Assembly: GCA_000934665.2 (NCBI GenBank) | Contig: KZ538203.1 | Location: 62,001-101,098 of the forward strand | Length of the DNA stretch: 39,098 nucleotides | DNA from: Catajapyx aquilonaris | Taxonomy: Eukaryota | Direction of reading: 5' to 3' | In this document: one piece after another, positions 1,299 through 31,700 of the stretch | How positions within the stretch are numbered: position 1 is the first letter of the stretch | How the letters are laid out: every line of letters begins with the position of its first letter | Position numbers and translations under genes: made by a program | Notes under the pieces: model-generated | The model's input: only the letters and a program-made list of their open reading frames with translations | The model's database searches: none | What the model was told of the DNA's origin: nothing

Positions 1299-4200
1299 AA
1301 ATGAAGCAAGAGCTGGAAGATCTCATGGCCGATATTAAGAAAACTGCCAACAAAGTCCGTGCCAAGTTAAAGGGTAAGTGCAGAACTTGAATTTTAGGAA
1401 GGAACAGTCATAACATCAATAGGTCTCTATCTGACATGTGCTCTCAACAGTTATTGAGCAGAACATAGAGCAGGAAGAACACACCAACAAATCGTCAGCT
1501 GACTTGAGGATACGAAAGACCCAGCATTCGACATTGTCCCGGAAGTTTGTGGAGGTGATGACAGAGTACAATCGAACACAAACAGACTACAGAGAGAGGT
1601 GTAAGGGCAGAATTCAGCGGCAGTTGGAAATCAGTAAGTTTGGCCCATTATGCATGTAGATGGTCAGAGGATAGAAGATCAAATCTAACAAAAGTGGAAT
1701 GTTTTAGCTGGAAGAACAACCACGAATGAGGAGTTAGAAGAGATGTTAGAGCAAGGAAATCCAGCCGTTTTTACGCAAGGTGTAAGGAATCATTTTGGGA
1801 TTTTTATAAGAGAGCAGAAGTAGACCAGGAACTTGTAATGATGTAGCACTTACCTGCAGATCATAATGGACACGCAACAAGCAAGGCAAACACTAGCTGA
1901 CATTGAAGCAAGGCATGCTGACATCCTGAAGCTTGAAACGTCGATTAGGGAGCTACATGATATGTTCATGGATATGGCCATGTTGGTAGAAAGTCAGGTA
2001 AGTGACAAACATTATTATGAGAATTTTTACATAAACAAAATTCTGAGTAATACTTATTCAAAGATAAAATTTGTTTCAGTAATATTTAAGCTTAACGCAA
2101 AAAAAACTTGTCTTCATGAAAATCTATATAGATTAAGATATGGTTATTATTGATTTAAATGACAAAGTGCAAAGTACGTGTGTCCTGAGTTGTGTTGGTC
2201 TGAAATTTTTACGAAGGGTAATCCATGAAGATATATTTCATTGTTCGGAGAACAGCTTCATTAAAATACGCATGGCAATTCCAACCATTGGAAAATAAGT
2301 TGTTTTTTTTCCCCAAGAAATAATTTTGGGTGAGAAATAGATTTGACGAGAAACTTGTCTGGCAGCTCAGTATGTGGAAATCAATTTTTAACTCATCCTG
2401 TCCTGTCCGTATGAGAATTTTTCTGCTGGAGGCTCTTCGGTGTAATCTATATGAAATGATTTTTGAACGCATTTTGAAACCCCTATCCCCTGCATTTTAA
2501 CATTGTGTAGCTTTATTGCCCCTTCCCATCTCACACCAACCCCCAAAATTAATGAATTGGAAAGGCATAATTTGATGTTTTGAAGTGTTCTGATGGGGCA
2601 TGCAGTGGGTTTGACAGTTTGTTGTTTGTCATGGGAACATGTGTGAGCTTGAGGGTGTACTTACAGGAATATTAATACATCAGTATTTCTGCCTTATCCA
2701 ACATATTCGTGTCTAAAACAGACGAACCTGATTGTCTCTTCTTAGCAAGAACTGCCCTCTGGTACTGTACATGCAGAGTATGTCAACAGTGCCCACCCCT
2801 GATGTCTCCCAAACATATTTCCTGTATTTTTTTCTCCCTCAACTTGGTGGAATGGCTTTCTTGCATGAAGAGTCAAAGGAATTGCCGATTTCAAAAGAGT
2901 TGCTTTTGAAGCTTGCAAAGAAACCAAACTCTGCCTCCCAACTGTTTGGGTCATGTTACTAACTGAGATGTGTGCACCAAGTAACATAATTATTATCTAA
3001 TGTGGTGGTGGGTGTTGTTTTGCTACCAAATAAAATATGTGACTTGCAGTATTGAAATTTCTGCTTAAGCTTGGGTTGTCAAGTTATATGACAATGCATT
3101 TAGCTGCTTCCATTTATTGACAGTATGGAGGAAGTGAAAATGTGCACACATCTCTCGTTCTTCCTTCTCGCAGCTTTCATGCCTGGATGGCTGAGGTCTC
3201 ATGGTCATGTTTTCATGTACCAAGTAATTGTATGTTGTTTCCTCTCTTAATTCCCTTCCTGGCTGCCAGGGAGAAATGATAGATCGTATCGAGTATCACG
3301 TAGAGCACGCCGTAGACTATGTACAGACTGCAACTCAAGACACCAAGAAGGCACTCAAATATCAAAGTAAAGCTAGGCGGGTAAGTCATGATGCTCCAAG
3401 AGCTTTGTTTGGCTAACATTTTTTTCCCCCCTCTTTTTTGTTTCTCCTTTTCCGGAATTTTCCACTTCCACCTTGACACCACACTCTCACCAATGTCTCC
3501 ACTATTTGCACAACCTAATTGTTCCAACTCCAAACCTTCCATGGTTTTTCTGTGCCGCATTAATGTTTCTCTAAATGTTGTTTCTTCAACATGTGTCGTA
3601 CAATCCCATACTTTTGCACGTTGGGGGTAATTTTTTACTCTCTTGTGTGGGTTAATGTTTCCTTCCACATGTGATCAATGTGAATGTGTGTGGAACTGGT
3701 TTGTGTACCTGTGTGTGTACTTGTTAACAATGTTCTCCGTGTGTACCTGCATATGTATGAATGGTGTGACTGCCTTCTGGGTTGTTATGTTGTCTGCTGT
3801 GCAATCTGTCCTTCTTATCTCTCTGACCCAAACCCACTTGTACCCCCTCCACAAATTCCAAAATCCTCCAATGAACCCAAAACAACACCACAATTGGCCC
3901 AAATGGTTGTTTCCTGTCAACCCTGTATCCATAAATCCCCAAAAATACACAGGGAGAAATGATTGACAGGATAGAATATAATGTGGAGCAGTCAGTGGAT
4001 TACGTGGCATCTGCTAAGCAGAATACGAGAAAGGCTGTTAGATATCAAAGCAAAGCAAGGAAGGTAAGTTGATCAGCGAGGTGGAGGATTGGGTATTAAC
4101 CAGCTCATCTGTTGCGGTTATGGGATTCTTTAACATCAGCAGTGGTTCAACTTTAGGTTAAATGCTGTCCTATGCTTGTAGATGGTTGGGGATGAGTCAT

Positions 4201-7200
4201 GACAGATAAAATAATATGCTTGTGGCATGTGAAAATTTTTTTCTCTCATTTAGAATGACTATTGAGGCTCTATTTACCAATAATACGTGAGTTAAACTAA
4301 ATGTGACACAAGATTACTTGGAAACCATGACATTGCATGTAATCGTTATTGGGTTGTACATTTTGTCAATTGATGTGATTACGGTAGGAGTGAAATTCGG
4401 CTACAATTTATCTTCGAGACTCAGTGAGGTTGGAATTGTGTTACTTTCCAAGTTTACTACTGTGATACTGGTAGCATACTGAAAATGATGAGTACATACA
4501 AATAATGGAAGTGAATATTTACACAGCATAGTATGACTAGCCAGTTAACATGCATTGCGTCTTTGATTTCTTCTGATATTTTTGTTACCATTGACATCTT
4601 TGCGCCACCTGCAAAATACTTTTAAAATTCCCTAGCAATTCCAGATTTTACCATATGATTTTAGGATTAAAATGAATAAATCAGCCTCTGAAGATGAATC
4701 ATCACTAGGGGACTAATGAGACAGCTGAACATGCCATGTGTCATTGTTTATATGCTGTTGTAATATAATTCTGCAAGGGGATTTGCACATTTCTGCAGAG
4801 TTGACAAAAAATGCAGCGGTGACGCAAATTATATGGAAAAGTGAAGAAAGCAATGCAAAGGATCTTTTATTGGATTGGTTTTGTCACTGTGCACCATAAA
4901 GGCCCATTCACACAGGCCGTCGACGGTTTTGGTTTTTGGTCACGTTGACACCGTGGACCAATCATGACCCATGTAAACAAGCTCTAAACAATGGGTTGTG
5001 CTTGTTTACATGATTCACGATTGGTCCGCAGTGTCAACGCGACCAAAAACCAAAACTGTCGACGGCCTGTGTGAATGGGCCTTAATATATTGTTAATGGA
5101 GATCCTTTAACTCTCTGCTGTGTGATACTTGCTGGTAACAATTCATCTTTCTTGACATGACTCTTAATAATCTACAAAAGAGTAACTTGTCTTTCCATCA
5201 AGTGCAGCTTCAATTGTTGAGTAGGATAAAATGACAGAATGTCCTTGTCTGGCTGTCCTGAGACATCCAGCCAGTAGACCATGTTGTTGCAGTTCAGATG
5301 TTTTGTAATTTTACAAGCACTGCAGAAGTCAGTTTTAAAGTAAAAATTGCGAAAATATACCAGATTTTAAAATCATATGCTCAATATATCGCTGATGAAC
5401 TTGTAAATTAAAACATAATTAAAAAGTAGGTTTAGTTTTGGTTTAGGATCGACAGACCAAGTTCAGAAATTAAATCAAAAGTAACACAATTTTTTTACAA
5501 ATTGATCCAAATGATTCAATTTTGTGAAATATTTCTCCAGGTATTCCTTCAGGTTACAGCCAAACTCGACTGGAATTACCTGAAAGGTCTGAAGGTGACT
5601 TATAGGAAACCTAACTAAATTTTACATGCCCTTTACATATTTTGTGAAAGAGCATTTGCTATATCATGAAATTGATGGTTTCATTACATTGTTTTTCCAG
5701 TTTTATTGATTCATCCCCAACAAACTACTTTTAATAATGTAATAACAAATCCTCATCACCAAATAACTGTGCTTTCCTAACCATCTATAAGTCCTGAAAC
5801 TTTTGTAGCTTTAAAGACTTCTTGAAGTATATATGTATATGAATTACTGTATACTTACATACCTTTAAGGGTTCTGTTACTGACTGTAGCTTGTAACATC
5901 GCTATCCGTACTGTTGTCAAAGCATGTCGGTGTCACCAAGTGTTCTTCACTTTCACTGTTCATTGTTTGATGGGGTTCACCAATCTGGAAAAAGAAATGG
6001 GAGTGATAATATTACTGGTGTATGTGACCTGCAATAATATTTTAACAACATGGATGTTGACTTTGAAAAAAAAATAATTAATGTTTCCTTTGTATTTGAT
6101 TTTTTTGGAGGTATTCTCGATGATTTTGTTGGTACTGCAATATTACCTGATTGAATTGATGAGATTATAAAGGCTTTGATCAGTCCTGTGCTGAAATTTC
6201 CTCTTGAACATTATCGATTCAGTTGAGCCTTACTTTGTAGACTTTTCTTATTGCACAAATAGTAGTTATTATTGTGTTTATGATTGGTTTTGCAAAATTA
6301 ATATGAACCTGATAAGCAACACATTGGATCAAAATCAATATTAGCAGGCATTTACATTAACTGCATGCTTTCATCTGCTGCTTATTATTCTGCTTTGCAT
6401 GCTCAGCTGTAGAAGCTGGGCCACTTCGCAGCTAATTAGCAATTTGCGGTCTTAACTCATGCAGTTTATATTTTCTACTTGCAGAAAAAGATACTACTCA
6501 TTCTGTGCTTAGTGATTGTTCTGGCCATAATAGCAGTAGTAGTGGCAGTAAAATGTGCAAATGGATGCTAGTTAAAGCCACTCCTGACCATTATTGCATG
6601 AGTGCATGATATGGACCTTAGTGTTCACGGACTATTTGGTTTGTTCTTCTCCTTCCTTTATTTTTCGGAGTAAGTGTAAGGTAATTGAAAATTAGTTTTT
6701 CAACATGTAATGCAAAAGCCAAGGTGTAGAGAGATTCTTAACATGACTAAATATGCATGGCAAATAACACAGTACAGTTTGGTAATTAGTTGGAAAGTAT
6801 ATTTTGTTTTCTTGGTTTTAATTATGTTTTGTTTAATATCTTTTCTTTCCACAGAAAAAGATAATCATCATAATCTGCGTGCTGATTCTTGCCATCGTTA
6901 TAGTTTTGGCATTAGCCTTTGGCCTAAGCTAGCCCAAGACACCTGTGACATTTCCACTGGACACTCTTGCCAGAAGCAGTGTATCCATTCTTATCACTTG
7001 TCCAGGCAAAGGATGCATTGTTAAGAAAGACAACAAACATGTTCCCCAATCATATCAGAAGCGATTTATTGTCAGAATAATTTGCAGAATGTGTAATATT
7101 TCCCCCTTTGAGTAATTGGAATTTTGGCTGAAATGTAATGGGAATATTTATTATCTTTTATTTTTTACCCCACACAGAGCGTGGATTCAAAAATCCTTAT

Positions 7201-10200
7201 ATGAACTGTGAAAGTGCTGTTTTGCGATGAAAGCGATGATCAGAGTTTTGCTGCGTGTTAATGTTGGTATGACCCAAGTGATTGTTGTGTTGTAGATATT
7301 GTGTATTGCAAAAAGTAAGTTAATTCCTTATTCCCTTGTAGTATTACAGTTCAAACCCCCCCATGTTGCACATGGTTATGGTTTATTTTCCATAACTAGT
7401 GATCACTCCTTTAAGCCTGTGTCATTAATTCAATTGTGTTGGACCATCCGGATTCATCCTATCTTCATTGTTCCTGCAGGATATCGAAATATTGTGGTTG
7501 CAGAGAGCAGATAATTAGAGTTGGGTGGTCAGCATTATTCCTGTTATTTTTTAGCACATCCATATATTGCTGGTCAAGTATAGTGTATAAGCCCAGTTCT
7601 AATTACTGCTTGAGATTACTAAAGTTAACCATCCCTTGGCACTGAGGTCATTGTCTAGTCAGTGGTTTTGCGACGCGTCAATATTGCTTCTTCCGTGGAG
7701 CAAGTAATTTTGTCAGGTCTGGTGTAATTTCTTTGTGTCAACACTTTTAGGACATCAATAATATTAACATTATTACATGTGCAATCTTGAAGGAATCATG
7801 GTGTGGTAGCATTTAAAGGCAACTGCCCTTAAATGTTACCACATCATGATTCCTTCAAGATTGCACATGTAATACTGGATTTTTCGGTTTAATCAAATTC
7901 ATCAAGTTTTTGTATTTGAATATTGAGCCCTTGTGTACGTACTGTGTCATATTTAGAGCTGTACATGTTTTATGATTGCTGGCTTCTGAGGAGAAAATTT
8001 ATTGTCAGATATTGGCGCTGACCAGGTACCAGCATCGATGTTGTTAGCTTAGTAATCAATTTTGTTACAAACCATATTTTTTTCCCCTTCATTATAGTGC
8101 CTTGCTTCAATTGTTTACTTCTGAAAATATTCATTATGTGGTGGCTGAGCTGTTTTATAATAAGCTTAATTGAATGTTAAGTGGCATTACTGGACATCAT
8201 AGTAGACTGATCTAAACTCAATTTAAAGGCATTACTCTTATGTTGTGTAATACACAGCTGTCTGAGAAAGAGATTGTGAGATTTGCGTAATCAAAAGTAC
8301 AAAAAGAATTGAAAAGAATGATGCACTCATCATGCAGAAAATTATGAAGTGCAGAGAGTTATCCAGCTACTTGAGTTGCATCCCTTTTACAGATGGGGAT
8401 TAATGTGTCATTTCTTACATTGGGTTTGCATCAGAGAGAAAATTAACCAGCAGAAGCTAATTTTCAGATTGTAATATCATAGGAAAAGTATAACATGTGG
8501 GTGATGGCATGATGGGAGTTGCAGATGCAGTTTCTTCCACATTGATCTGCATAATTGGCTCTAGCAGTGCATAAAAAAGCTCTCTAAAAGCTATTGTAGC
8601 ATGAAAGAGAGGAGCATGTCATGTGAATTATCATCTTGAGCAGTCTAAATAAAATTCAGATGTTATTACTGGAGGTCCTTCAATGTATGTCAGTTGAGAC
8701 CTTCCGGAGGTGCTTCCCATGACTTGATAGGTGCTAAACGTGGATAGAGATCAATGCTTGTGAACTTGAGAAACAACCGTTTAAGAACATGTCAGATGTT
8801 TATCTAATGTGAAATAAGATTGGTCCTGGGAATATTTTCTTGAACATACATATACAATGCCCTTTTAGAGCCTTACATTCTGGCATGATTGTGTGGCTTG
8901 GATTTAAAAGTCATGGCAGTGCATGCTTTGAGGCACAAGTTTATTTTGCTAATTCACTGACGCATATTCCACCTTTCATGTACGATAAGTAGCATTACTG
9001 TAGATTAAAAACAAGAATAATGAAAAGGGGAAATAGTTGCTTATGTGTAAGCAGCTAATAATTCAATATCACCTTGTCCAGGCTGTTAGTAAACCAGTTC
9101 CAGTATGTTTAAAAAGTATGATTCAAAGAATTTCTCAGACGTCCAGAAGAATATAACCAAAAATAGGCCATTAAAATATATTAAGTTATCATTTCGAATG
9201 AATGATACAAATTGTAATGTACTGCATGACACAAAAGTCAGCTAAGATCCAGATTGCCTGTAATTCAGTATTTTATCCTGACTCAATTGTACCCAGAGTA
9301 AGAGAGCATCCTCTTTGCTGATTACATTCCATGTGCATGGATCCACTATGCACGTCACTTGTAGCAATGTTGCCTACTCGAATTATGAATGGACACACAA
9401 GTCTGCTGATTAGGATCTGAGGTAACTTTTGGGAGATCTGGTACTTTGTTATGGAGCAAGGAACATAATGCCTTAATAATAACATTACCATTAATAATAT
9501 CATGACGCATTTCAACGAAACCACCACATGAGGGAAAAATTAAACGAGAGGTTTACCAAAGAAGTATGGAGTAACGTGACACTGGCACAGACTATGAGCA
9601 AGTGCTTTTGCAGCAGATATGATATCTATAATGGGGAAAGCCTGTTAAAATACATAATGTAAATTAGTCTATCTTGNNNNNNNNNNNNNNNNGGGGGGGG
9701 GACTTTCTCAATAGTCTTTACAAATATGGTTGAACTATTCTAAACTACTTTGATCTGCATAGGGTTTCAAGTGTAGTGGAAGATATGCACCATCACATAC
9801 TAATGCTGATTTTTGTGGGAAAATTCTTAACAATGTTACGACCGAATAGTACTTTTGGAATGCAGTCATATGTTATGCAGTGGTTGTGTTGAGCAGTTTT
9901 CTGTCACTCCTCCTTCACCTAGAATGTCATCTGAGTGCTTACTGCCACACCATATAGATATCATATTGCAACTATACATTTTCAACTCGTGATGATAACT
10001 CAGAAAATTTGTCAGGATTTTCTGAAGTGTCACTGGAACCTTGGAGCTGCCATGTGTACAGTATTAATTCCGTGTCCAATGCACATTCCTAGCCCAGTCT
10101 CAGATATGTCTTAGGATCTGCAAATCAGGTTACTGTACCATTCCTTGTGGCCCTGTACTTACTGACGTGTGTGGTAATATACTGTGGACTAAGCTGCAGA

Positions 10201-12421
10201 CCAAAGGTTTGGTTCCTGGAAGCCAAAGACTGAGGCCAAGAGCTGCCATTAGTGATTAGTGGACAAGAATCCAAGAGATGAGACCTCAAGGGTAGCACAA
10301 AAAGAAAAACAATTTTAAGTAAGTTCAGAAGTGACCATACATTGATTAACATTTGTTTGCGAGTCGTCTAATGTATACTATGGGATGTACACATTACTAC
10401 TTTTGATTTCCTCAACTTCATTTATCTTGAGTGTTTGGCTTAATTGCTGTGCCATAGATGTTTCTCATCTGCGGCTGAATTTGGATGGTTACCTAGTTTT
10501 GGCGGCTTCAACAGTCTGCTTTTTTTTCCTGTATGGTTTTCCCCTTGTTCCCTCCCCAAACCCAACTCAATAAATGTACATGTGTATTCATATCAGTGCC
10601 ATTCCTTGTTGTTAAGTGTTAAGCGCTGCCACCTGTTTGCTCTACATTCACCTTCGTGTTGATTAATTTTAATCACCTGGCCGGCACCTGAAAACCTATT
10701 ACCAAGCGTGATTGTGTATGTGTGTGTGAGAATGAGAATATGTGGAAGGATCACATCCTTATAATGTATCTTTCTTCACAACTGTAGACATTGTCTTCCC
10801 TTCAAGTGATGTCAACGTGCTGCAGTGCATGAATATCAGCGTAACTTATTGTTTTTATTTGGGAGCTTATTGTGTATTAGGCTTTAATGTGGGGTTCCTG
10901 TACAGTACAGCATTTGAAGTGTACTAACAACACCTTTTCTTTCTTGATGTGTAAGTGTACTAACATATTGCATTGATGTCATTGTTCACCCTTCCAAAAC
11001 ACCTGCAATGCTAACCTGTAGAAGAAAATCATGATCATGGTCTGCCTCACAGTCTTGGGAATTGTTTTGGCCTCAACAATTGGAGGTTACCTCGGGTTAT
11101 TTTAAGTAAGTTCAGCAGCAACCACATCGTGATTGACATTTGCTTTAAATTATAGTGTAGATCAGCTATCTAAAAAATCATGATAAATTTTTATCAGCAT
11201 GATCTGCCTTTTTTTTCTGGTGGGTTTGAATACTGCATGTCGTTTATCCCACCTAAGCCCAATAAATTTAATAAGTTGAAGGGCTCTCAGTTAATTGGGA
11301 TTTGCTAATTAACATGGTGAGTGATAATACTTTTCATGATGTTCTGAAGAGTTGGTAAAAATTTTTGATCGCACAGATACAGAATTAATCCGACTATCCC
11401 TGCTAGTTTCGCTTGTATAATTATGCTTTCTAAAATATAATGCTTCCTGTATTTATTGTGCACAATGAGATGCTTTCTTTGTGCCTGGATTGGACCCATT
11501 TTTATGGATTGGGGTCTGCTTGTTTGCATGAATATGTCGTGTATATCTCTTCTCCAGTAATTCGATATGGAATCATGAGTGTTAAAGCATGCGCAATGTT
11601 GTCGTGTAATAGCCCTTGTCACTCGTTGTGCTCTGATCTTCATGTGAGGACTAATGTTTTTCTACTTTCACTACCATTACCTACTTTACCTCCTTTTATC
11701 AAAGAATGTGTAACCAGACCATGCGTGAATGTGCGAGAGAAAGAGAAAATTATGAATGGATTGACCCATTCAGGCTGCATGTGTTTAGACATTTATAGCG
11801 TATATTTAAGGTGGTATAAAAATGTCACAAAATAAGCATATGGATGACCTCTTGCCACAAGAAGAAAATGTGACAGTTTCTAACCAGTGCTTTCAAGCAC
11901 TGGATATTCTGGTATTGCGTAGGCACCAATTTATTTAACACCACAAGAAGTTAATAAAGCGATAAATTTTAAGTGGATCATTATACTTGATGCCTGAACT
12001 GCCAGTTACCTTGAGGGAAATTATCAAAACAATTTCATCTTTTGGTAGATTTGTGACATTTTTATTCACCCTAAGAAATTAATAAGTTTATTGTAGATTT
12101 TGCCTTTTTTTTTAACCAAGTTACTTGAACTTCAAGCAATGCATGTTCGACTTTTTTCTACTCTGATCCTTTCTTTATTGATAGTGTAGCCTGGATTAGT
12201 AGGATTTTAGATTCATGAAGAATACAGTTTTGAAACATATACTAACAAAACTGCTTCTTTGAAATGTGATGTATGATTAACCTTACTAACATACTGTATT
12301 GGTGTTGCTGTCCTCCAAAACCTGCAATGCTAACCTGTAGAAGAAAATCATGATCATGGTCTGCCTCGCAGTCTTGGGAGTTGTTTTGGCCTCAACAATC
12401 GGGGGTTACTTCGGGTTGTGA
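1299..12421 (+). CDS. Syx1A: Syntaxin-1A (plasma-membrane Qa-SNARE), 5'-partial, alternatively spliced. Constitutive exons 1299-1373, 1451-1633, 1708-1781, 1860-1997; then exon A 3270-3380 or exon B 3953-4063; then one TM exon (6485-6571, 6855-6932, 11022-11105 or 12341-12421)
   Basis: The spliced translation [165 protein letters not shown]...YQSKARR-KKIM... matches the syntaxin-1 Habc/SNARE/TM architecture. All junctions are GT-AG with consistent phase. The N-terminal exons lie upstream of the window. Confidence 0.97.
3270..3380 (+). CDS. Syx1A: Syntaxin alternative exon A, C-terminal half of SNARE motif: [37 protein letters not shown]
   Basis: 111 nt, phase 0/0, acceptor ...ggctgccag, donor gtaagt. 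The peptide resembles the canonical insect Syx1A sequence. Confidence 0.95.
3953..4063 (+). CDS. Syx1A: Syntaxin alternative exon B, duplicate of exon [38 protein letters not shown]
   Basis: Same length (111 nt) and phase as exon A, acceptor ...tacacag, donor gtaagt, open frame, 26/37 aa identical to exon A. Confidence 0.9.
4900..5082. mobile_element. Palindromic MITE, PIF/Harbinger (Tourist)-like, intronic
   Basis: 183-bp element that is almost entirely an inverted repeat (AGGCCCATTCACACAGGCCGTCGAC ... GTCGACGGCCTGTGTGAATGGGCCT), flanked by TAA at 4897-4899 and 5083-5085, the 3-bp TSD typical of Harbinger. Confidence 0.8.
6485..6571 (+). CDS. Syx1A: Syntaxin alternative TM exon T1: [28 protein letters not shown]
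   Basis: Polypyrimidine acceptor ttttctacttgcag, phase 0, starts KKI like syntaxin TM exons, hydrophobic helix, then stop. Confidence 0.85.
   Translation, partial: KKILLILCLVIVLAIIAVVVAVKCANGC
6855..6932 (+). CDS. Syx1A: Syntaxin alternative TM exon T2: [25 protein letters not shown]
   Basis: Strong acceptor cttttctttccacag, phase 0, KKI plus hydrophobic helix plus stop. Confidence 0.88.
   Translation, partial: KKIIIIICVLILAIVIVLALAFGLS
7771..7874. repeat. Near-perfect inverted repeat (two 51-nt arms, 2-nt spacer)
   Basis: Arm 7771-7821 is the reverse complement of 7824-7874 with only 3 differences. Confidence 0.92.
11022..11105 (+). CDS. Syx1A: Syntaxin alternative TM exon T3: [27 protein letters not shown]
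   Basis: Acceptor ctaacctgtag, phase 0. The peptide resembles the syntaxin-1 type TM (KKIMI..C..VLGIV.AST.GG). Confidence 0.92.
   Translation, partial: KKIMIMVCLTVLGIVLASTIGGYLGLF
12341..12421 (+). CDS. Syx1A: Syntaxin alternative TM exon T4: [26 protein letters not shown]
   Basis: Close duplicate of T3, including the upstream acceptor region (cctgcaatgctaacctgtag). Open frame to stop. Confidence 0.92.
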   Translation, partial: KKIMIMVCLAVLGVVLASTIGGYFGL

Positions 12422-14375: not shown

Positions 14376-14399
14376 TGCGTGTGTGTGTGTGTGTGTGTG
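14376..14399. repeat. (GT)n microsatellite
   Basis: gtgcgtgtgtgtgtgtgtgtgtgtg seen directly. Confidence 0.85.
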
Positions 14400-17300
14400 A
14401 ATAACTCAGCTTTAAAACAGCTTCTTTGAAAATGCAATTTCAAACTTTTTCCACAAAAAGGATATGTATTGGTCTTAGTAACCAGAGCTGACTAAAATGG
14501 CTTGAAGTGTGGGAAAAGAACTCCCAACCTTCTCAACATGTCCAGTTTGGGGGGGGNNNNNNNNNGGGGGGGGGAGAGACCTTCAATATCATTTGACTTA
14601 TGGCCACAATATTCTAGTCACCATCATGCCAAAGTGGTAACTGGACTGTTGACAATGGAACATTAGAAAATCGAAGTTTGAAATTTTAATGCAATATGTA
14701 AACTAGTGTAATATGCTAATGTGGTCATCTAATGTTCCAAGCTGTTGTAAAGAATTCATATTTTAAGGATCCAATGTACTCACTTGTAGAGACTTGAATG
14801 TAAGCTTTCTCTAGTCATTGGCAAGCATATCTGAAGAAGAAAAAAAAAACTACTGAGGAGGATTGCTGTCACAATAATTTTCCATTCTGCAAGTGAGTAG
14901 TGGATTTACACTATTATGTGTGTGGTCATGCAGCATGTATGTGGTGAAAGAATTTTTGTAGGATTGAGAGGAAAGGTGCAGATTTTTTCCCCCACCACTC
15001 CTCGAGCAAAAAAGAAAAAAGAAAAAAAAATGCAATTGTTTGTTTAGTTTGAATGTTGCAAAGCTGTAGGAGGAATTTGGGTGTTGCATTCTAATCCGTA
15101 GCAATAACAAATTATACATATGTTAGAGTCAAGGTTGACATTAAAAGACAGACAAAAATGCTGTAGAGTTGCACATTGAATTCTCTTTTGTTATTGTTTG
15201 AACCGTTAAGAGATTGTTATTACTAGACATACGCGTTGTATGTATAAATACCTACGTCTTGGATAACTTTGTACTGTTAGGGGGATCATGAAGTACTGTA
15301 GATATTTATTCTCCTGAACCTGTCTTTCAGTTAGGCTACAAGTGTATAAATCATCCCAGCCCTTGTGCAACTTATGCATAGAAATGCCTCTTCATGTCGT
15401 TCATAACCTGCAGTATATAACGGGGGATTTGCAAAAGGGGATGAAGTGCACTGCATTTCCAAACAAAAGGGATAATAAACAGGAGACAATCTGCTTGGAA
15501 ATTCAGTTTGGGCATGAAATATAGCCTCCACAGTTTACTGTGCTGAAACGACCAATTTTAGGATCATCGAACTTATGCAAATCTTCCAAGTGTCAGAACA
15601 TGGCCCCCTTCTCCCAAGTCGTTGTGTGATTAAAAAATGAAAAAGCGAAAAAAATATACATTGCTACAAGTGACATTGTTTCATGTTATCAATTGTCACT
15701 AATCAGATAAGTATAATAATATATACAGTATATGCTAGGCACGTGTTGGTTGCTTGGTCAATTTTGAAAGAAGATTAAAAAGTGCGCTTTCGTTACCATT
15801 GGGAACTCATAGTGAGCATTGCCCCGAGTGCTTTTACTGTGGACTGTTGCATTACAACTTTCTTCATGTATTGAGGAAGTATTAGAAGAAAAAGTTCTGA
15901 AGAGAAGGGAAACGGATCAGAAGAAACAGAAGAGTCCAGGAGTCGAGAGGATAACTACTGCACGAATAATTATGGTGTCCTATACTTTTTGTCTTTTACC
16001 AGTTGGATTATAGATATGTAGTGAGAACTGTTGTACACCAGGCATCCACTTTTAGCCCATCCCCCCCCAAAGAATTTTTGAGTCTTGGTGTTGTTGAAAA
16101 AAAAATAAGACAGAGACAACTTATACTCCATAGTGCTTGAAACATTGCAGGCATGTGCCCGGAGCACTTCTGATATCTAAGATGGAAATAAAAAAGGAAG
16201 GAAAATCCGTATCTAAACCGATAGGAAGTGGTTAGCGCCTGAGTGCAGCTTGAGATACGCACGTTTTTGGGCGCATCTTCTTGTATCACTCTCACCTGTA
16301 ATTAAGCCGGTTTCCCAAATCTAGGTGAGGGTGAGGTAACAAATTACAGTGAATGAATTTTTGAGAAAAATAATAAAACAAAAAAAAATATATACATAAA
16401 TTTTCTCTCACTGCACTGCTCTAGTTCTCAGTGGTCAATGCGTGGGCTTTTTGTAAAGTTTGTTGGAAAAACTGCCAAGAGATTTGTGATGTTAGGATGC
16501 ACATATTCCACATGGGTTTGTATAAAGACAAATCTCCAGTAGCAGATAACTGAACTAAATAAGCACAATTCACATCCAAGTCTTTGTTGTTTAATACACA
16601 ATAGTTTTTCAGTGCTTATTAGCACAATCTGGGAAGGATTAACCAAATGAAAAGAGTGGAAGATTTTGTACACGGTTTTGTTATGTGTAATAATTTTTCA
16701 TTTGCTAGAGGTGCAGGATTCCCACTAAAACCTTGGCAATTCCAATACTGTAAACAATGAAGCAGTAAAAAGTGAAATTGATGTTCGCCTACTTGGAAGA
16801 GCAAAGGGAACTTGGCAGAGTTTTTATAATTAATGAAACTCTTGAATCGTCTTATGTGTGTAACAAAGTATATAAGTGTGAGCACAAGCCTTCAGAAAAA
16901 AATAAATAAAAATAAATAAGTGGGTTTGGGAAGCAGTGCCCAAGTCCACTTTGTTACCAGATTGAATCACGACGGGAGGTGTGAAAAAGATTGAGATAAA
17001 AACAAAAATGGTGTAGAAAAGGGGCCAATCTGAAGGTCTGGCCAATCACTGAGACCCAGAGTCAGTTTAGCAGCAGTATCACCATGCAATAATGATGATA
17101 ATAAATAGTGATATGTGTGCTATTAAATAAGGGAACAGCGTGCACTAGTTGAAAATTAAATTGGTGCACTGAGAAACAACAGAGGTCGATGACAATATTT
17201 TATTGGTTCAACATGCTTTAGTAAATGTTGAGGCTTTGTAAATCCAGATTGTGTGCATTTTTTAATACTTGAGTGGCCTTGAAATATTTTTTCCCCCATT

Positions 17301-22761: not shown

Positions 22762-23801
22762 TTATGCCTGTATCAAGGCTGCCAGGTGCTGACAAATGTC
22801 TTTAGCTGATGGCCTCTCATCTGGAACCTCACTAGTACAGCAGTAGAACAGCTCAATGACAGGCTTGTAGCTATCATCAAAAGAGTGGTCTGGAAGGGCT
22901 GGCCTTGTCCCAATCCTCTTCTCAAACTCTTGCTCCTCAACCTCCAGCCTCTCAGTGATTGACTCCTCAGTGGCCGATTCCCAACTCATATCATCATTGT
23001 TCACATGTGGTGGATTCAGCGACATCATCTCCCACAGGACCAACCCATACGAAAATATATCCGTCTTGTGAGTGACAACGCCATTTTCGCTCACCGCCTC
23101 CTTAGCTGACCAGCAACGAGTTCCAATGTAGATCTCAGTCGGATCACTCACAATACCCTTCTCATTGAGTTGCAGACTAACCCCAAAGTCACACAACTTG
23201 GCCGCCTCAAACTCGCCTGCAATCAGTATGTTAGCACTCTTGATATCACCATGCAGCAAGCGCTTCTCATCATGCAGGTAGCTAAGCGCCAACGCAACAT
23301 CATATGCCACTTTTAGGATGTATCCTGCCAGGAATGGCCCGCCATCCTCCTCATTGCGCTTCTCGACCAGATCACCCAGGGAAACATGCCCATGCTCCAT
23401 AGCGAGACAGGCATCACCTGATATGTTCTTCCCAAATGCCCGGAAGCCAATTATGTTTGGATGCTTGAGCTCCTTCAGAATTTCAGCCTCCAAGCGCAGA
23501 CGAGATGCAGCTGAGCGGCTGCACTGATACTTGGAGTTCACCTTCTTCAAAGCCCACGGGGATTTGTACTGGCAGGGGGAGCGGGGAGACCGCTCCATCA
23601 GGAACACATCCACACCTGTAAAAGTATACATGAAGGTAGAGTCCAGCTCATTGTTGCAGCAAATCGGGTCATACCAGTTCCATATCCTATTTTCTTCAGG
23701 AAAGGTGTTGGCGGCAGACGCATAATGGGCGTCGATGGAGGCTTGTCAGACACATCGCGACGTCGGTTGGTCGGTTCAGGGCTCTGGAACACATCCGCCA
23801 T
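22762..23801 (-). CDS. PBK: PBK/TOPK (PDZ-binding, lymphokine-activated killer T-cell-originated) mitotic kinase, about 326 aa. Exons 23801-23675 and 23615-22762
   Basis: A 59-nt GT-AG intron joins MADVFQSP...PPTPFLKKIGYGTG to VDVFLMERSPR...SPWALKK, the PBK-type N-lobe. Kinase motifs HGDIKSANIL, LCDFGVS, YIGT..W..KE and DIFSYGLVLWEM are present. Candidate polyA signals are TTTATT on + at 22635-22640 and 22737-22742. Confidence 0.93.
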
Positions 23802-24200: not shown

Positions 24201-24611
24201 CAACGGTATCAGCTGGATGGGAGATTAGATATTTGGAGCATTGCAGTGTGACCTCAAACAGAATGCTGTAGAATTTGGTACCGCAAATACACAGGTAAGG
24301 CAGATGTAGTACGCAGGTGTTGATAGGCAAGTCATACCGTGGGGGTATTAACCTAAATGTCGCATGTTTACATAGAGATTTTGATAATAGAGGACCCACT
24401 TTAAGGGCCTTAATAACCGCACCGTTGACTACAAGCCGTTCACAGGCTACTCTATCACACTATTACACCCATATCAGGTACCCCTAAGGCCAACTGTTGC
24501 AAGGTGCAACCAGCATGTATTAATGATATTACTAACCAGCATTGTGTGCTGATGATATTTACATGTATCACTTTCCATCAACAGGAACGAGTGGTGACAG
24601 GCAGTCCAACC

Positions 24612-27600
24612 ATGCTGCTTTTGTTTGCACTACTTGTCCCAGCGTCGTCCCAGCAGTTGACGGGAGGGATGCTGTACCCAAGAGCATCTGAGTCTAGAGA
24701 ACTTGTGTCCCTAGATGGAGTTTGGGACTTCAGGGCCAGTCCTGACAATGACCAATCCGAGGGTTTTAGGGAATCGTGGTTCAAAAAAAGATTGGCTCAG
24801 ACAGGTGAAGTTCAGCCTATGCCAGTGCCTTCTAGTTACAATGATGTGACCCAAAATGCCAGTCTGCGTGACTACATTGGTTGGGTGTGGTATGATCGAG
24901 AGTTCTACATTCCTGCTAGGTGGAAGCAAGATGGGAGGGTTGTCTTGCGCTTTGGAAGTGTTCATTACTACACCATGGTGGTAAGTGCTGGTGTATGCAG
25001 GGGTAGTTTAGATGTCAAATACCCCCTTGGTTTTCTTGCAGTGGGTGAATGGAATATCAGCAGTGAACCACAGTGGAGGCCACTTGCCTTTTGAGGCAGA
25101 TGTAACCAAACTTCTGCATGCGAATTGTAGCAACTTGGTCACAGTAGCTGTCAACAACACTCTCACCACCTACACCATACCCCAAGGAGAGACAATTACT
25201 CATCCGAACAGTTCAAGGTACAGTATCAGTAATAATTTTGAACTGCTGAAACCCTACATGCCTGACCGTGTTAATACGACTGAGAATCCTATGGCATTAA
25301 TTCCTCATTCCCTGTGCTTAATTTCCTGCAGATATCCGCCAGGTTTTCATGCGCAAGAATACAGCTTTGACTTTTTCAATTATGCTGGAATTCATCGTCC
25401 TGTGCACCTGTACACCACACCCAACACCTACATTGAAGATATTACTGTCACAACTGAAATTCTGGGCGAAACCGCAGGTAATTCTGAATCATTGAGCACA
25501 CTTACAGTTGGTATTGTTTTTGGCCAGGTGTTATTCATTATAGAGTGGATTACAAGTCTGAATCAGCAGAGCAGCAAGTTGTTTGTTATGTCGAGCTGTT
25601 CAACAAGAAACGAATCATGGTGGGAACTGCAAAAGGATGCAAGAGTTTGGTTAAGGTGGCAAATGCCACTTTTTGGTGGCCATTTCAGATGAGTGAAGAG
25701 CCAGGATATTTGTATACTTTGAAGGTAAATAATTAAATTGGGGATAAGAATCTTATTTCTTCAGGTGCTGGGAACAGGCTTGTATTGTTACATCAGGAGA
25801 AGAAAAGCCTCAGGTCATTGTGATTCCGTGTTTGAAATTTCTTGACATTAATCCAAGTTTCAGTATTTCCATCGACTTTATTTTTGCTTGATTGGGGCCA
25901 TGGTAAATTTTACTTATGTCATGACTTGCTCATGCTGTGTAATGCAGGATGCACATTTTCACATTTACTTGAACAAGGGTAAGCCATCAGTACACTTGGG
26001 GTGAAAACATAAATTTTCTTCGTCTTGCAGGTTAATGTGGTGAGCTCCAATGGCATGGATGTGTACAGACTGCCAGTTGGGATTCGGTATGTCAGTTGGA
26101 ATAAAACTGGGATTTACATCAATTCAAGGCCTTTCTATTTTCGTGGATTTGGACGCCATGAGGACTCAGATGTGAGTATTTTTCTTGGGTAATTGATGTT
26201 GATATATGATAACCTGGAGGGGCGACACGGTGGCAGAGTGGTTATCGCCACAGCCTACCATCTCTAAGGTCCCGAGTTCGATCCCCGGGTCGAGCAGAGG
26301 ATACTTATGTGGATAGAGTTTCAATGTGTTCTCTCCGTGTTCGAGTGGGTTTTCTCGGGGTTCTCCCTTTTCCTCCCGCAATCAAAATCCATCACGTGCA
26401 GGCAATGATTAAAGTCGGTTCACAAAAAGAAGATCCCCTAAGAGGCCCAAGGTCTATCACGGGGTATCCATTATTATATGATTGCTACTTGATCCAATTC
26501 TAATAATTTTTGAAAATCACATTACAGATCAGAGGCAAAGGATTAGACCTCCCATTAGTTATCAAAGACTACAACCTCATCAAGTGGGTAGGAGCTAATT
26601 CCTACCGTACCTCACACTACCCATACGCAGAAGAAATCATGGATCAGGCAGACCAGCAAGGGATAGTCATAATTGATGAGTGCCCTGCTGTTGACCTCAG
26701 GTAATGAACACCATAATAATGTTGAACAGGATTTGAGTCACAATGTCGCTGACCAAAACATAATCTTCCCATCCTTACAATGGGCATCATTACAGTCTGG
26801 ATTGAATTTTTTAGTGTCTTCGATCAAAAGATGCTGAAGAACCACGTCCATGTGATGACTGAGTTAATTCAAAGGGACAAGAATAGGCCAAGTGTGGTAA
26901 TGTGGTCATTAGCAAATGAACCTAGGTCATCTAAAAAGGAGGCCAAGGATTATTTCAGGTAAAATCAGTATCAGCAATCACTGCCTAGCACAACCACTAA
27001 CAAGCACTTCTCACTAGTAACCTGACTTCTGTGGTGAGGAGTTTAGATCACACCAGAATTGTTTCACTGGTCATCAATGCTGATGTTTCTACTGATCAAG
27101 CAGTAGGTTGCTGCATGTTTTTAAATTTATTTTTTAATGTCCGTATTGCTTGCGCTAGGCATACTCCACCCTGCATGATCTGTGTTTAATGGGCTGTCTT
27201 CCTGTAGTCAGCTCGTTTCATATGTACACCAACTGGATTCAGGTCGTCCTGTGACTGCTGCACTGTCTGGTGGTGTTAGTTCTGACAATGCTGTATGTAC
27301 TGCATGTGCACTTCTCTGAAATGAATTAGTGTTGAACAAAGCTTCATAATGGTGTGGAACAAACAAATGTCTTTTTTTTTTCCAGGCAGCCTTTGTTGAC
27401 ATAATATGTGTGAATAGGTACTTTTCATGGTACAGTGACACAGGCCATCTGGAAGTAGTAAGGAGGCAGGTTGTCAGTGAATATACTGAATGGCATGAAA
27501 AGCATGGAAAACTTGTCATGATCTCAGAATATGGAGCTGACACCCTAGCTGGGATGCACATGGTGAGTTGGGTATTTATTTTTATTATCTTCACGAGTAA

Positions 27601-28053
27601 TAATTCTATGTATTTGTATTTTAGGACCCACCATTTGTTTGGACTGAGGACTATCAGGTGGCAATGATGTCAGAGTATTTCCAAGCATTTGATGAGCTGC
27701 GTCATGCAGGATTTTTTGTTGGGGAGATGATCTGGAATTTTGCGGACTTTGCTACAGCTCAAGGTAATTTAATTTTGATACAAATTTATTCAGTTCATAT
27801 TATTTCTTTTGTGCACTTATTAATTTTTTGTTATTTTTATTTCCAATTTTTCCTCCCTGTTTCTTGCTCTCATTTATTATTTTTGAAAGCTGTTACACGT
27901 GTAGTGGGAAACAAAAAGGGTATATTTACAAGGCAACGGCAGCCCAAAGCTTCGGCTCATTTCTTACGAGCTCGGTATCACCAGCTGGCTGAAGAGATAG
28001 ATGGGTTTAAGGACCTGAAATACCGCAGCAGAGTTTATTGCCCCAGAGTGTAA
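24612..28053 (+). CDS. GUSB: Beta-glucuronidase (GH2) paralog 1, about 636 aa. Exons 24612-24980, 25042-25217, 25332-25477, 25528-25724, 26031-26171, 26528-26700, 26815-26958, [27018-27102 or 27208-27292], 27386-27562, 27625-27763, 27890-28053
   Basis: Signal peptide, then [60 protein letters not shown], acid/base WSLANEP, NRYFSWY, nucleophile SEYGAD, WNFADF and [14 protein letters not shown]. With one copy of exon 8 the exons sum to 1911 nt. AATAAA at 28088-28093. Confidence 0.96.
26219..26475 (+). mobile_element. tRNA-derived SINE with V-domain-like core, in glucuronidase 1 intron 5
   Basis: Pol III A box TGGCAGAGTGG (26231-26241) and B box GTTCGATCC (26276-26284), followed by ...GTGTTCTCTCCGTGTTCGAGTGGGTTTTCTCGGGGTTCTCCCTTTTCCTCCC, which resembles the V-SINE central domain. 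The 3' end is approximate. Confidence 0.75.
27018..27102 (+). CDS. GUSB: Glucuronidase 1 alternative exon 8a: (S)[28 protein letters not shown]
   Basis: 85 nt, acceptor cttctcactag, donor gtaggt, phase 2/0. Homologous to the GH2 segment ...LDPSRPVTFV...D. Confidence 0.85.
27208..27292 (+). CDS. GUSB: Glucuronidase 1 alternative exon 8b: (S)[28 protein letters not shown]
   Basis: 85 nt, acceptor gtcttcctgtag, donor gtatgt, same phase as 8a, contains LD..RPVT. Confidence 0.88.
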
Positions 28054-28744: not shown

Positions 28745-31700
28745 ATGTTGTGGTTAACACTTCTGCTGCTGGTTGCGTCTTGCAGTGCAGAACTGACTGG
28801 TGGGATACTGTACCCAAGGGAATCTGAGTCTAGGGAGGTCCGCTCTTTGGATGGAATATGGGATTTCAGACTGGCAGACAGGCAGCATCCACAGGTTGGA
28901 TTCAGGGAGAAGTGGTACAAACAGAGGCTGGCTGAGGTGAGATAGACTTTTAGGAATTTGGTTGGAAGAGATGGAAATGTCTGTTTGTTTGTTTGTAGAC
29001 TGGTCCAGTGCAGGGCATGCCAGTGCCTAGCAGTTACAACGATGTGACACAAGATGCAAGCATCCGAGACCACATTGGCTGGGCTTGGTATGATAGAGAA
29101 TTTTTTGTGCCACAGCGATGGTCTCAGGACAAGCAGAGAGTATTCTTACGTTTTGGAAGTGCCCACTACAATACTGAAGTAGTAAGTAGAGCACAATGCA
29201 ATATTCATATTATTTGACAATATTTACCTCAAATATTTCCTGCAGTGGGTCAACTCAGTGTCAGCTGTGAATCACACAGGCGGACACCTCCCATTTGTGG
29301 CGGAAGTGACGAAGCTGCTTAACTATGGTTCAAACAACAGAATTACTGTGGCCATCAACAATACACTAACACCGCACACAGTGCCTCAAGGTCATATTGT
29401 GCATGAGAGCAACACAAAACGGTATGGAAAATTTTATTTTAAAAATGTAATCACAGCTATGTGTGGCTAATTATTTTGGAATTCACTTTGTTGAAGGTAT
29501 CCACCAGGATATTTTGTACAAACGCTGAACTTTGACTTCTTCAACTATGCTGGAATCCACCGACCTGTCTACCTGTACACTACACCTGAGAATTATATTG
29601 ATGACATAACTGTCACCACAGACATTCTCAATGCAACCACAGCTGTGATCAACTACCATATGTCAGTAAAAGGTCCTGGAAGAAATTCTGTTCACCAACC
29701 AGGCTGCCAGGTGACCATCTATGATCGAGACATGAGATTAGTTGCAGAGAGCAATTTAGCACCAGAAGGTAAGATAGTGGTCACCAATGCTCATTTCTGG
29801 TGGCCTTATCAAATGCATCATGAGCCTGCCTACCTCTACACGATGGAAGTAAGAATCATGGTGTTATAAATCGCAACATTAAATTTTGACTTACAACATT
29901 TGTTTCAGTTTCGTGTGATTACCTCAGTTACTAGTGATGTCTACCGGATGCCAGTTGGCATTAGAACAGTAAGCTGGACATCAACTGAATTCTTCATAAA
30001 TGGGCAACCATTTTACTTCAGAGGATTTGGACGTCATGAGGATTCTGATGTAAGTTTTTGTGAAACAGCTACTTCATTATGAAATGTTGCGCAACACTTT
30101 TCCGGTTATTGTCAACACATTATTCGAGGACATTGTTGACTGTGAAGAGTTGTCTGGGAGTCGGTGCGCCGCATCACCAAAAAGTGGTTCCTGGAGGGCC
30201 TGGAGAGGTTAACTAGTACCAGTGCCAGTGCTTTCGGCTCCAGGAGGATTCTATATACAATATGTGCCTATTTTTCGACCTGCACGGGGGCTGTGTCTGT
30301 GGCAAAAAACAAACTGTCAAATCATTTTGGTACCGTCCTCGTATTAGGAACACACTGGGGCCTGCAAATTGGCTTATACCAAAGGAAGGAAACACAGAAG
30401 ATATAATTATGTATTTTGCAGATGTTCCTGTAGTGGAACATGGGTTACTTTTTTAAATGCCTTATGTGAGTCATTTTTCCGCAGATTCGGGGTAAAGGTG
30501 TGGATAATGCGTTGCTAATTAAGGACTACAATTTGCTGAAATGGATTGGTGCTAACTCCTATCGAACTTCACATTACCCATATGCAGAAGAGATTTTAGA
30601 TCAGGCTGATAAACAAGGGATTGTCATTATCAATGAAAGTCCTGCCATTGGTCTGGAGTATGTTGTGATGACTGAATCCATAGGGATATCACAAAATAAA
30701 ATGCTACTTTCTTTTGCAGTGGATTTGATGACCTTCTATTGAAACAACACAAGCGAGTGATGGCAGAGTTTGTGCGGAGGGACAAGAACAGGCCTAGTGT
30801 TGTCATGTGGTCTATTGGAAATGAGCCGCAATCACAGAAGAATGCATCAGGACCTTATTTCAAGTAGGACAATAAGAAAGCTTTTTTCTCCCTTACTCAA
30901 TATTCAGAGTTCATCATTGGCACCATCTGTTGTGCTCTAGTCACGCCTTTTCAAAAATGTTATGCCAGGGCGGAAGGGAGTGACAATTCATACACTCTTG
31001 ACCTGTGTTTATTTTTAACTAGAAATCTATACAGTATATTTGCCCAGCATGGCCAATTTTTCCCTAGGGATAGAAACAGTGCGCCATGCAAAGTAGCACT
31101 GAGTAACACTTATTACTACTCATTCCTATCCTTGTTAGGTCTGTGGTTGAATACACCAAGACACTTGACACAACACGACCTGTGACTCTTGTCATCAGTG
31201 CGGGATACCAAGTGGACCATGGTGTAAGCTGCATGAGGGTCCTTTCTGGTAGAATTTTCAATGTAAATTTACAACATTTCAGGCACAATATATGGATGTA
31301 GTTAGCATCAACCGTTATTTCTCATGGTATTCTGACACAGGCCATTTAGAAGTCATACAGCCCCAAACGTTGGATGAAGTTCACCAGTGGCATCATAAGT
31401 TTGGCAAGCCTGTCATTATGACAGAATATGGAGCTGGTACAGTGGCTGGAATGCATATGGTAATGAAGACCTAGTTGATTTTGATATCCAATGTTAGCTT
31501 GCCTGTCTGTTGTTAGGACCCGCCGTTTGTGTGGACGGAAGATTACGAAGTGGCACTGCTTCTGGAGAACTTCAAGGCATTTGATGTGCTGCGACACAAC
31601 TCATCATCTGGATTCATTGGGGAGATGATTTGGAATTTTGCAGATTTTGCAGTGCCGCAAGGTTTGTTGTTATCAGGAGGTTGGAAGGAGGGAGTAGAGT

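Follow-up and report, generated by a model that had tools for sequence, protein, structure and literature searches.

The central target-membrane SNARE in neurotransmitter release is syntaxin-1, and the C-terminal half of its helix is the part in which final zippering takes place and at which fusion regulators act. In vertebrate syntaxin-3, one of the closest described systems, the isoforms STX3A and STX3B have exons 1 to 8 in common and then use different exons 9 and 10, which encode the SNARE motif's C-terminal half and the transmembrane segment (PMC11476516); for SNAP-25a and SNAP-25b, exons 5a and 5b are tandem duplicates under obligate choice that differ at 9 of 39 residues across the end of a SNARE motif and the linker, and their exchange alters complex stability and physiology (PMC2581893); and C. 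elegans unc-64 has alternative last exons, 8a and 8b, chosen by the CELF protein UNC-75 at a UG-rich site in the intermediate intron (PMC4946901). We have analyzed a syntaxin-1A gene at the start of a 39,098-nucleotide (nt) stretch from Catajapyx aquilonaris (GenBank assembly GCA_000934665.2, contig KZ538203.1, positions 62,001 to 101,098 of the forward strand; hereafter the window, whose own numbering is used throughout), in which the exon for the SNARE helix's C-terminal half is present twice in tandem, as exons A and B, upstream of four alternative membrane-anchor exons (Table 1). An earlier reading of these letters alone (the sequence-only reading) had proposed a mutually exclusive switch between a neuronal-type and an alternative fusion helix, and had likened it to an exchange of SNARE C-terminal half plus transmembrane segment in STX3A/3B, a description of STX3 that PMC11476516 bears out.

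The comparison with these systems gives likenesses and differences at each step. Two fish STX3 models (P0127 and P0129) carry two 37-residue units directly after the zero-layer Gln (...ENQ or ...ESQ), exactly the boundary found here, so that exons A and B begin where vertebrate STX3 exons 9A and 9B begin; STX3 is, however, a different paralogue, and its C-half and transmembrane exons are described as switching together, whereas 2 x 4 combinations are possible in the window. A tree that included the STX3 exons gave no resolution, with both of them on long branches, and neither favours nor rejects a duplication common to them and A/B. SNAP-25 resembles the window in having tandem duplicated exons in a neuronal SNARE, but it is a Qbc SNARE, its duplication is vertebrate-specific, and the swap also alters the palmitoylated Cys cluster. 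In unc-64 (exons 8a/8b) and in the mammalian syntaxin-2 variants the membrane anchor is changed by alternative last exons, a parallel to the four anchors here, and the UG-rich intron site of unc-64 has a possible parallel, which we treat as a lead only, in the UG-rich intron between A and B; unlike the window, the unc-64 variants described in PMC4946901 do not have the SNARE motif itself alternatively encoded. The A/B pair is a further, unusually conservative case of the known tandem SNARE-exon type.

Exons were mapped by tblastn with 11 arthropod syntaxin-1A proteins, and exon edges were read from the letters. By this mapping the first 12.4 kb of the plus strand reads as the 3′ two thirds of a pancrustacean, most likely hexapod, syntaxin-1A gene, the window starting inside the gene and residues 1-75 falling outside it; the window exons align with the insect and crustacean proteins tested at 79-98% identity over residues ~76-231. 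A zero-layer Gln joined to a SNARE domain, an aligned N-terminal region (the syntaxin-1A proteins used for comparison bear PF00804, the N-terminal Habc region), and C-terminal anchor exons place the gene in syntaxin-1, the plasma-membrane Qa SNARE. The Gln that closes the exon upstream of A and B corresponds to Q226 of syntaxin-1A (Stx1A), residue 1 of the following exon being aligned to residue 227 of fully numbered syntaxin-1A chains (9ojz_G 227-263, 6mdm_I 227-256). That the upstream exon stops exactly at the zero-layer Gln of ESQ, and that the duplicated exon spans layers +1 to +8 and the juxtamembrane linker, had both been stated in the sequence-only reading and agree with this alignment.

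Exons A (P0001) and B (P0002) are adjacent and homologous; each is 111 nt long, comprises 37 stop-free codons in phase 0, and is bounded by its own splice signals (ag|...|gtaagt). They agree at 26/37 residues, 16 of which are encoded by different codons, and at the nucleotide level they differ at 37 of 111 positions, distributed 8/5/24 over codon positions 1, 2, and 3; alignment of their intron flanks is restricted to the splice signals. Reading and translation are accordingly as first described, including the many synonymous changes. By Nei-Gojobori counting there are 23.0 synonymous differences over 22.3 sites (a proportion of about 1.0, that is, saturated), compared with 14.0 non-synonymous differences over 88.7 sites (proportion 0.158, dN 0.18). 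When 37 substitutions were placed at random on A 100,000 times, the mean number of residue changes was 22.7 and the minimum 14; no set gave 11 or fewer, the number observed. Synonymous saturation combined with only 11 residue changes indicates that the duplication is old and that both copies were kept as coding sequence, and exon B is, on this substitution pattern, evidently retained under protein-coding constraint. Both exons match the Pfam SNARE domain PF05739 (A 54.0 bits, B 52.7 bits; cut-off 26.8), while a Pfam search with three other open reading frames (ORFs) across the region, two on the opposite strand and one in another plus-strand frame, found no match. The evidence supports A and B as true tandem duplicates spanning layers +1 to +8 plus the linker.

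The sequence-only reading had suggested looking for the second exon in arthropod and other bilaterian Syx1 loci, and it is found there. Paired gene models in five species share an identical prefix as far as ...MLVESQGE and then continue into different 37-residue exons (Penaeus japonicus, X3 versus X4/X5; Procambarus clarkii; Gryllus longicercus; Cimex lectularius, X1 versus X2; and Ostrinia furnacalis, X1 versus X3), it being understood that these models are predictions and that the species are related, so that the counts are not independent observations. A complete form with the second of these exons (exon 2 below) is encoded by a 1185-nt assembled contig (P0049). Among 80 loci kept from a scan of metagenome contigs with the A+B alignment, 13 carry the hexapod exon A at 37/37, and 8 of the 13 are genomic (AG...GT). 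A second 111-nt AG...GT exon lies 428-461 nt downstream of A in six of these eight (the corresponding distance in the window is 572 nt); the six represent three distinct sequences (L049; L051/53/54; L052/55), and a further locus, L075 (450 nt), has too little flank to be judged. At least one anchor exon follows in five of the six two-exon loci, and in L049, as in the window, a non-GGY anchor stands ahead of one of GGY type. In the spliced, cDNA-like metagenome loci, exon A continues straight on (AG...AA).

The pancrustacean Syx1A models and the window thus concern the same gene, with the same boundary after ...ESQ and the same 37 codons, and where DNA could be read the second copy stands a few hundred nucleotides 3′ of the canonical one, with alternative anchor exons after it, as in the window. 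Exon B lies, like exon 2, a few hundred nucleotides beyond the canonical copy and upstream of a non-GGY anchor, and to judge from position it is the counterpart of pancrustacean Syx1A exon 2. Rates of change are in keeping with such a pair: six pairwise comparisons gave zero non-synonymous changes in exon A at synonymous proportions of 0.53-1.05, while exon 2/B changes fast, with non-synonymous proportions (pN) of 0.30-0.42, and an unchanging A beside a fast exon 2/B fits one constant exon plus one variable alternative. The two ends of the series differ considerably, insect exon 2 being 13-21/37 identical to A or B and usually having Gly at +6 and Leu or Ile at +7, whereas B here is 26/37 identical to A and keeps the canonical core.

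What kind of helix B encodes can be read from the 11 differences, which fall at Stx1A positions 236, 239, 240, 245, 246, 248, 250, 252, 255, 256, and 263. With SNARE layers +1 to +8 at Stx1A residues 230, 233, 237, 240, 244, 247, 251, and 254, the register of the SNARE crystal-structure literature, the sole core-layer change is at 240 (+4, Ala to Ser) and the other 10 lie outside the core, as the sequence-only reading had it; those at 236, 248, 250, and 255 occupy flanking e/g heptad positions, and B relative to A has lost two His and gained two net positive charges. B retains all eight canonical core-layer residues, and its core, IIVSVATA, recurs unchanged in a sea urchin, in an STX1B-named protein of a mammal, and in exon 1 of shrimp. 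The change at +4 is mild: the residue is Ala in the STX1A chains of the Protein Data Bank but Ser in STX1B-named, echinoderm, hemichordate, and shrimp syntaxins, and Ser is the commoner state among the proteins compared. As far as the residues tell, the A/B swap leaves the core layers effectively unchanged and alters 10 surface or flanking residues. Exon A matches its counterpart in Lepidoptera, Orthoptera, Collembola, and Cimex at 37/37 residues; against the echinoderm/hemichordate exon (sea urchin, acorn worm) B scores 30/37 and A likewise 30/37, and over the 11 residues that separate A from B the echinoderm/hemichordate exon equals A five times and B five times. B has the general bilaterian residue at five sites and no nucleotide tract in common with A, and was therefore not copied recently from the hexapod-type A. 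By these comparisons B is close to the general bilaterian sequence, an unusually conservative second exon. The proposed opposition of a neuronal-type helix (A) to an alternative one (B) is not supported, given that B has an STX1B-named and bilaterian core, stands as near as A to the echinoderm/hemichordate exon, and bears a common residue at +4; the other half of that proposal, a mutually exclusive switch, gains from the either/or pattern in the gene models of five other pancrustaceans.

Downstream, the four anchor exons were located by their pattern of an acceptor, then KK, a hydrophobic stretch, and a stop codon; of these the third and fourth encode tails of the GGY(L/F)GL type. Their near identity (10990-11105 versus 12310-12421) extends ~30 nt into the upstream intron and takes in a TACTAAC-like branch-point motif, farther flanks being unalignable, which suggests recent duplication or gene conversion. 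With A or B ahead of any of the four anchors, the gene layout allows 2 x 4 combinations, or up to eight protein forms. Choice of helix and choice of anchor may be coupled: among 42 complete models of other species, again related and predicted, the anchor of true exon-2 forms is of non-GGY type in 18 cases and GGY in 1, and that of A-like forms is GGY in 15 and of another type in 6 (the rotifer model P0004 and the paralogue P0059 were set aside). By analogy, B would mostly be joined to one of the two proximal anchors (6485 or 6855).

Two candidate regulatory elements lie near exon B. The UG-rich cluster in the A-B intron is a candidate splicing-regulator site; in the window and in L049, L051, and L052 the density of UGUGUG in this intron is 4.3-8.8/kb, versus 0.3-1.7/kb in the rest of the locus, and the fraction of sliding windows of equal length (intron included) that reach the same count is 0.027, 0.096, 0.080, and 0.047 in the four. 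A hairpin predicted to pair the pyrimidine tract and acceptor AG of B with the first B codons has a z score of -2.35, with 2 of 200 shuffles as good, while the equivalent of exon A is unstructured; among the other loci the acceptor hairpin is significant in L051 (z -2.62) and not in L052 (z 0.69) or L049 (z -0.64), and as a regulatory element it is a weak lead from folding predictions. The best pairing that bridges A, between 2939-2953 and 3895-3909 (-20.4 kcal/mol), has a selector-like place but was rejected as a docking/selector system, 5 of 20 shuffles having equalled it.

Taken as a whole, our reading is that A and B are alternative exons, that B is the positional counterpart of exon 2, that four alternative anchors follow, and that the swap preserves the core; we give this reading a probability of roughly 0.7. 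A transcript would carry A or B after the zero-layer Gln exon and then one of the four anchor exons, and the UG-rich element of the A-B intron, together with the hairpin at the B acceptor, would regulate the choice between A and B. The A-or-B splicing itself we infer for C. aquilonaris.

Apart from the dependence among gene models already mentioned, a number of observations weigh against this reading: i) a word-based search of a 5.8-billion-protein collection with a 40-residue reference (B plus three upstream codons) gave no protein closer to B than 31/37 among the 100 longer and 24 similar-length candidates scored; ii) the best sequence trees, built on 37 columns, do not join B to the other exon 2 sequences; iii) one hexapod-type locus, L076, has no second exon within 809 nt; iv) the acceptor of B has a poor pyrimidine tract, the pyrimidine share at -23 to -4 being 45%, versus 75% at A; v) the Cimex lectularius isoform X4 model (P0107) joins ...MLVESQ directly to an anchor exon and includes neither type, so that in the annotations the choice is not always one of two; vi) both exons stand one after the other in several models from other species (P0036, P0082, P0073, P0032), which may be prediction errors; vii) the exon length of 111 nt is divisible by 3, the frame survives whether the two exons are both included or both skipped, and strict exclusivity can therefore be imposed neither by the reading frame nor by nonsense-mediated decay; viii) a 572-nt intron between A and B rules out steric exclusion; and ix) in an ungapped stem scan of three introns the best long-range stems were matched by 5, 18, and 3 of 20 dinucleotide shuffles. 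None of the known enforcing mechanisms looked for (frame shift with decay, a too-short intron, competing RNA pairings) was recognized at the locus. The product of the P0107 form would have a SNARE motif that stops at the zero layer.

The alternative that fares best, though we think it unlikely, is that B is a real alternative exon from a separate duplication rather than the counterpart of pancrustacean exon 2, its position being coincidental or convergent. This exon has been duplicated repeatedly (clean tandem pairs occur in 14 of the 80 metagenome loci, with a fifteenth whose second copy is cut by the contig end); in non-arthropod loci the copies are 44-83 nt apart, the extra one being on the upstream side in some loci and on the downstream side in others; and B is without the residues typical of insect exon 2 (Leu3, His10, Gly at +6, Leu/Ile at +7). 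The phylogeny of exon peptides, which the sequence-only reading had also proposed, was run, and with 37 columns it leaves B in a basal bush without resolution, support being confined to the insect and malacostracan exon 2 groups; the best tree sets B apart from exon 2, but approximately unbiased (AU) tests reject none of three groupings of B, with insect exon 2 (p 0.30), with all exon 2 (p 0.33), or with arthropod exon 1 (p 0.13). Against a separate origin, three distinct hexapod-type loci have the two exons in the same order and similarly spaced, and the five bilaterian residues and dissimilar nucleotide sequence by which B departs from hexapod A are not those of a recent copy of A.

It is distinctly improbable that exon B is a relic, functional long ago and no longer spliced in this lineage, although a weak pyrimidine tract, a predicted hairpin over the acceptor, and the lack of a close counterpart among the proteins scored are what such a relic might show. 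At the age implied by synonymous saturation decay would be expected, yet B has an open frame, intact splice signals at both ends, a Pfam SNARE score of 52.7 bits, only 11 residue changes, and all eight core-layer residues; B might, at most, have fallen out of use very recently. Very unlikely is a gene that normally includes both exons and makes a syntaxin with a repeated half-helix: the frame would be kept, and besides the four models listed above the fish STX3 model P0127 has both units, but with 37 residues more the heptad register would be displaced by two positions and a second +1 to +8 set would come between the zero layer and the anchor, each model in the five paired-model species has one exon only, and the cDNA-like metagenome loci run from A straight on. 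An assembly artefact (a collapsed haplotype or a mis-join), to which the four N stretches and two suspiciously alike GGY-type anchors might point, can be dismissed almost entirely, for 33% of bases are different between A and B, their flanks are unrelated, there is no N between 1 and 9676, and the same two-exon layout recurs on independent contigs of other species.

We return to A and B as alternative exons in order to place them in a wider pattern. Eight further pairs among the metagenome loci are non-arthropod (L031, L032, L035, L036, L038, L069, L070, and L072, with L027 cut); in these both copies are 111 nt long with intact AG...GT and lie 44-83 nt apart, and in L036 the two copies have identical flanks. 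A very short intron between exon copies can enforce mutual exclusion sterically, and a spacing of 44-83 nt may be short enough for this. From the loci compared, the SNARE C-half exon seems prone to duplication. A broader view, which we put forward tentatively and consider possible rather than probable, is that this exon is a duplication hotspot across animals (STX3, pancrustacean Syx1A, and several invertebrate lineages), with at least two modes of separation (44-83 nt introns in some lineages, a long regulated intron in arthropods). On this view the pancrustacean pair would persist here close to its original state and give one gene two fully canonical, fusion-competent helices, one with the arthropod-derived and one with the ancestral bilaterian surface, and the choice of exon would be coupled to the anchor and steered by a conserved UG-rich element of the intron.

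Most invertebrate work has been done in Drosophila, and to our knowledge the Drosophila Syx1A coding region is without such an exon pair. In the literature searched (titles and the starts of abstracts) we found no description of a SNARE C-half exon pair in an invertebrate syntaxin-1; within that literature the pancrustacean pair seems to be known from automated database annotations and barely described in papers, and isoform diversity at the SNARE C-half has been little studied outside vertebrate STX3. The locus is a natural minimal experiment, with the same core, ten surface differences including two His and two charges, and four anchors: should different cells or stages prove to use A and B, swaps would reveal which surface positions set release properties, and the series from the conservative B to the strongly diverged exon 2 of moths and bugs would show a duplicated fusion helix drifting to a new role. 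In practical terms little is gained, since automated annotations of other species already contain the layout.

Table 1. Syntaxin-1A exons and candidate regulatory elements in the window
Feature	Position	Strand	Basis
Constitutive exon, aligned to residues ~76-99 of insect Syx1A	1299..1373	+	tblastn, boundaries read
Constitutive exon, residues ~100-160, 98% identity to Anabrus and Cimex Syx1A	1451..1633	+	tblastn, boundaries read
Constitutive exon, linker ahead of the SNARE motif, ending ...FTQG	1708..1781	+	tblastn, boundaries read
Exon ending ...MLVESQ, then gtaagt	1860..1997	+	tblastn, read, alignment to syntaxin-1A chains
Exon A, layers +1 to +8 and linker, 37/37 to hexapod Syx1A	3270..3380	+	read, translated, Pfam
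Candidate UG-rich cluster, five TGTGTG, in the A-B intron, 264-337 nt 3′ of the A donor	3644..3717	+	motif count
Predicted hairpin, B pyrimidine tract and acceptor AG paired with first B codons	3912..3971	+	folding, -26 kcal/mol
Exon B, tandem duplicate of the 37 codons, 26/37 to A	3953..4063	+	read, translated, Pfam
Alternative anchor exon 1, KK + hydrophobic run + stop, non-GGY type	6485..6571	+	acceptor/ORF scan
Alternative anchor exon 2, non-GGY type	6855..6932	+	acceptor/ORF scan
Alternative anchor exon 3, GGY-type, stop directly then gtaagt	11022..11105	+	tblastn, acceptor/ORF scan
Alternative anchor exon 4, GGY-type, near-identical to exon 3	12341..12421	+	tblastn, acceptor/ORF scan

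The N stretches of the window, 27 bases in total, lie at 9677-9692, 14557-14565, 34671, and 36719, none of them in the A/B region, and a (TG)n microsatellite occupies 14380-14399. Beyond the syntaxin gene, a protein kinase domain (PF00069, E 8e-37) is encoded in a long open frame of the minus strand at 22765-23745, within a stretch of higher G+C (about 0.50); on the plus strand, ~24430-28050 and ~28800-29870 hold two adjacent groups of exons for the sugar-binding, immunoglobulin-like, and TIM-barrel parts of glycosyl hydrolase family 2, which look like tandem beta-glucuronidase-like genes. In the intron 3′ of exon B there is an inverted repeat (4896-4982 and 5000-5086; 87 nt, 91% complementary, with a spacer of 17 nt) that looks like a small foldback or transposon-like element.

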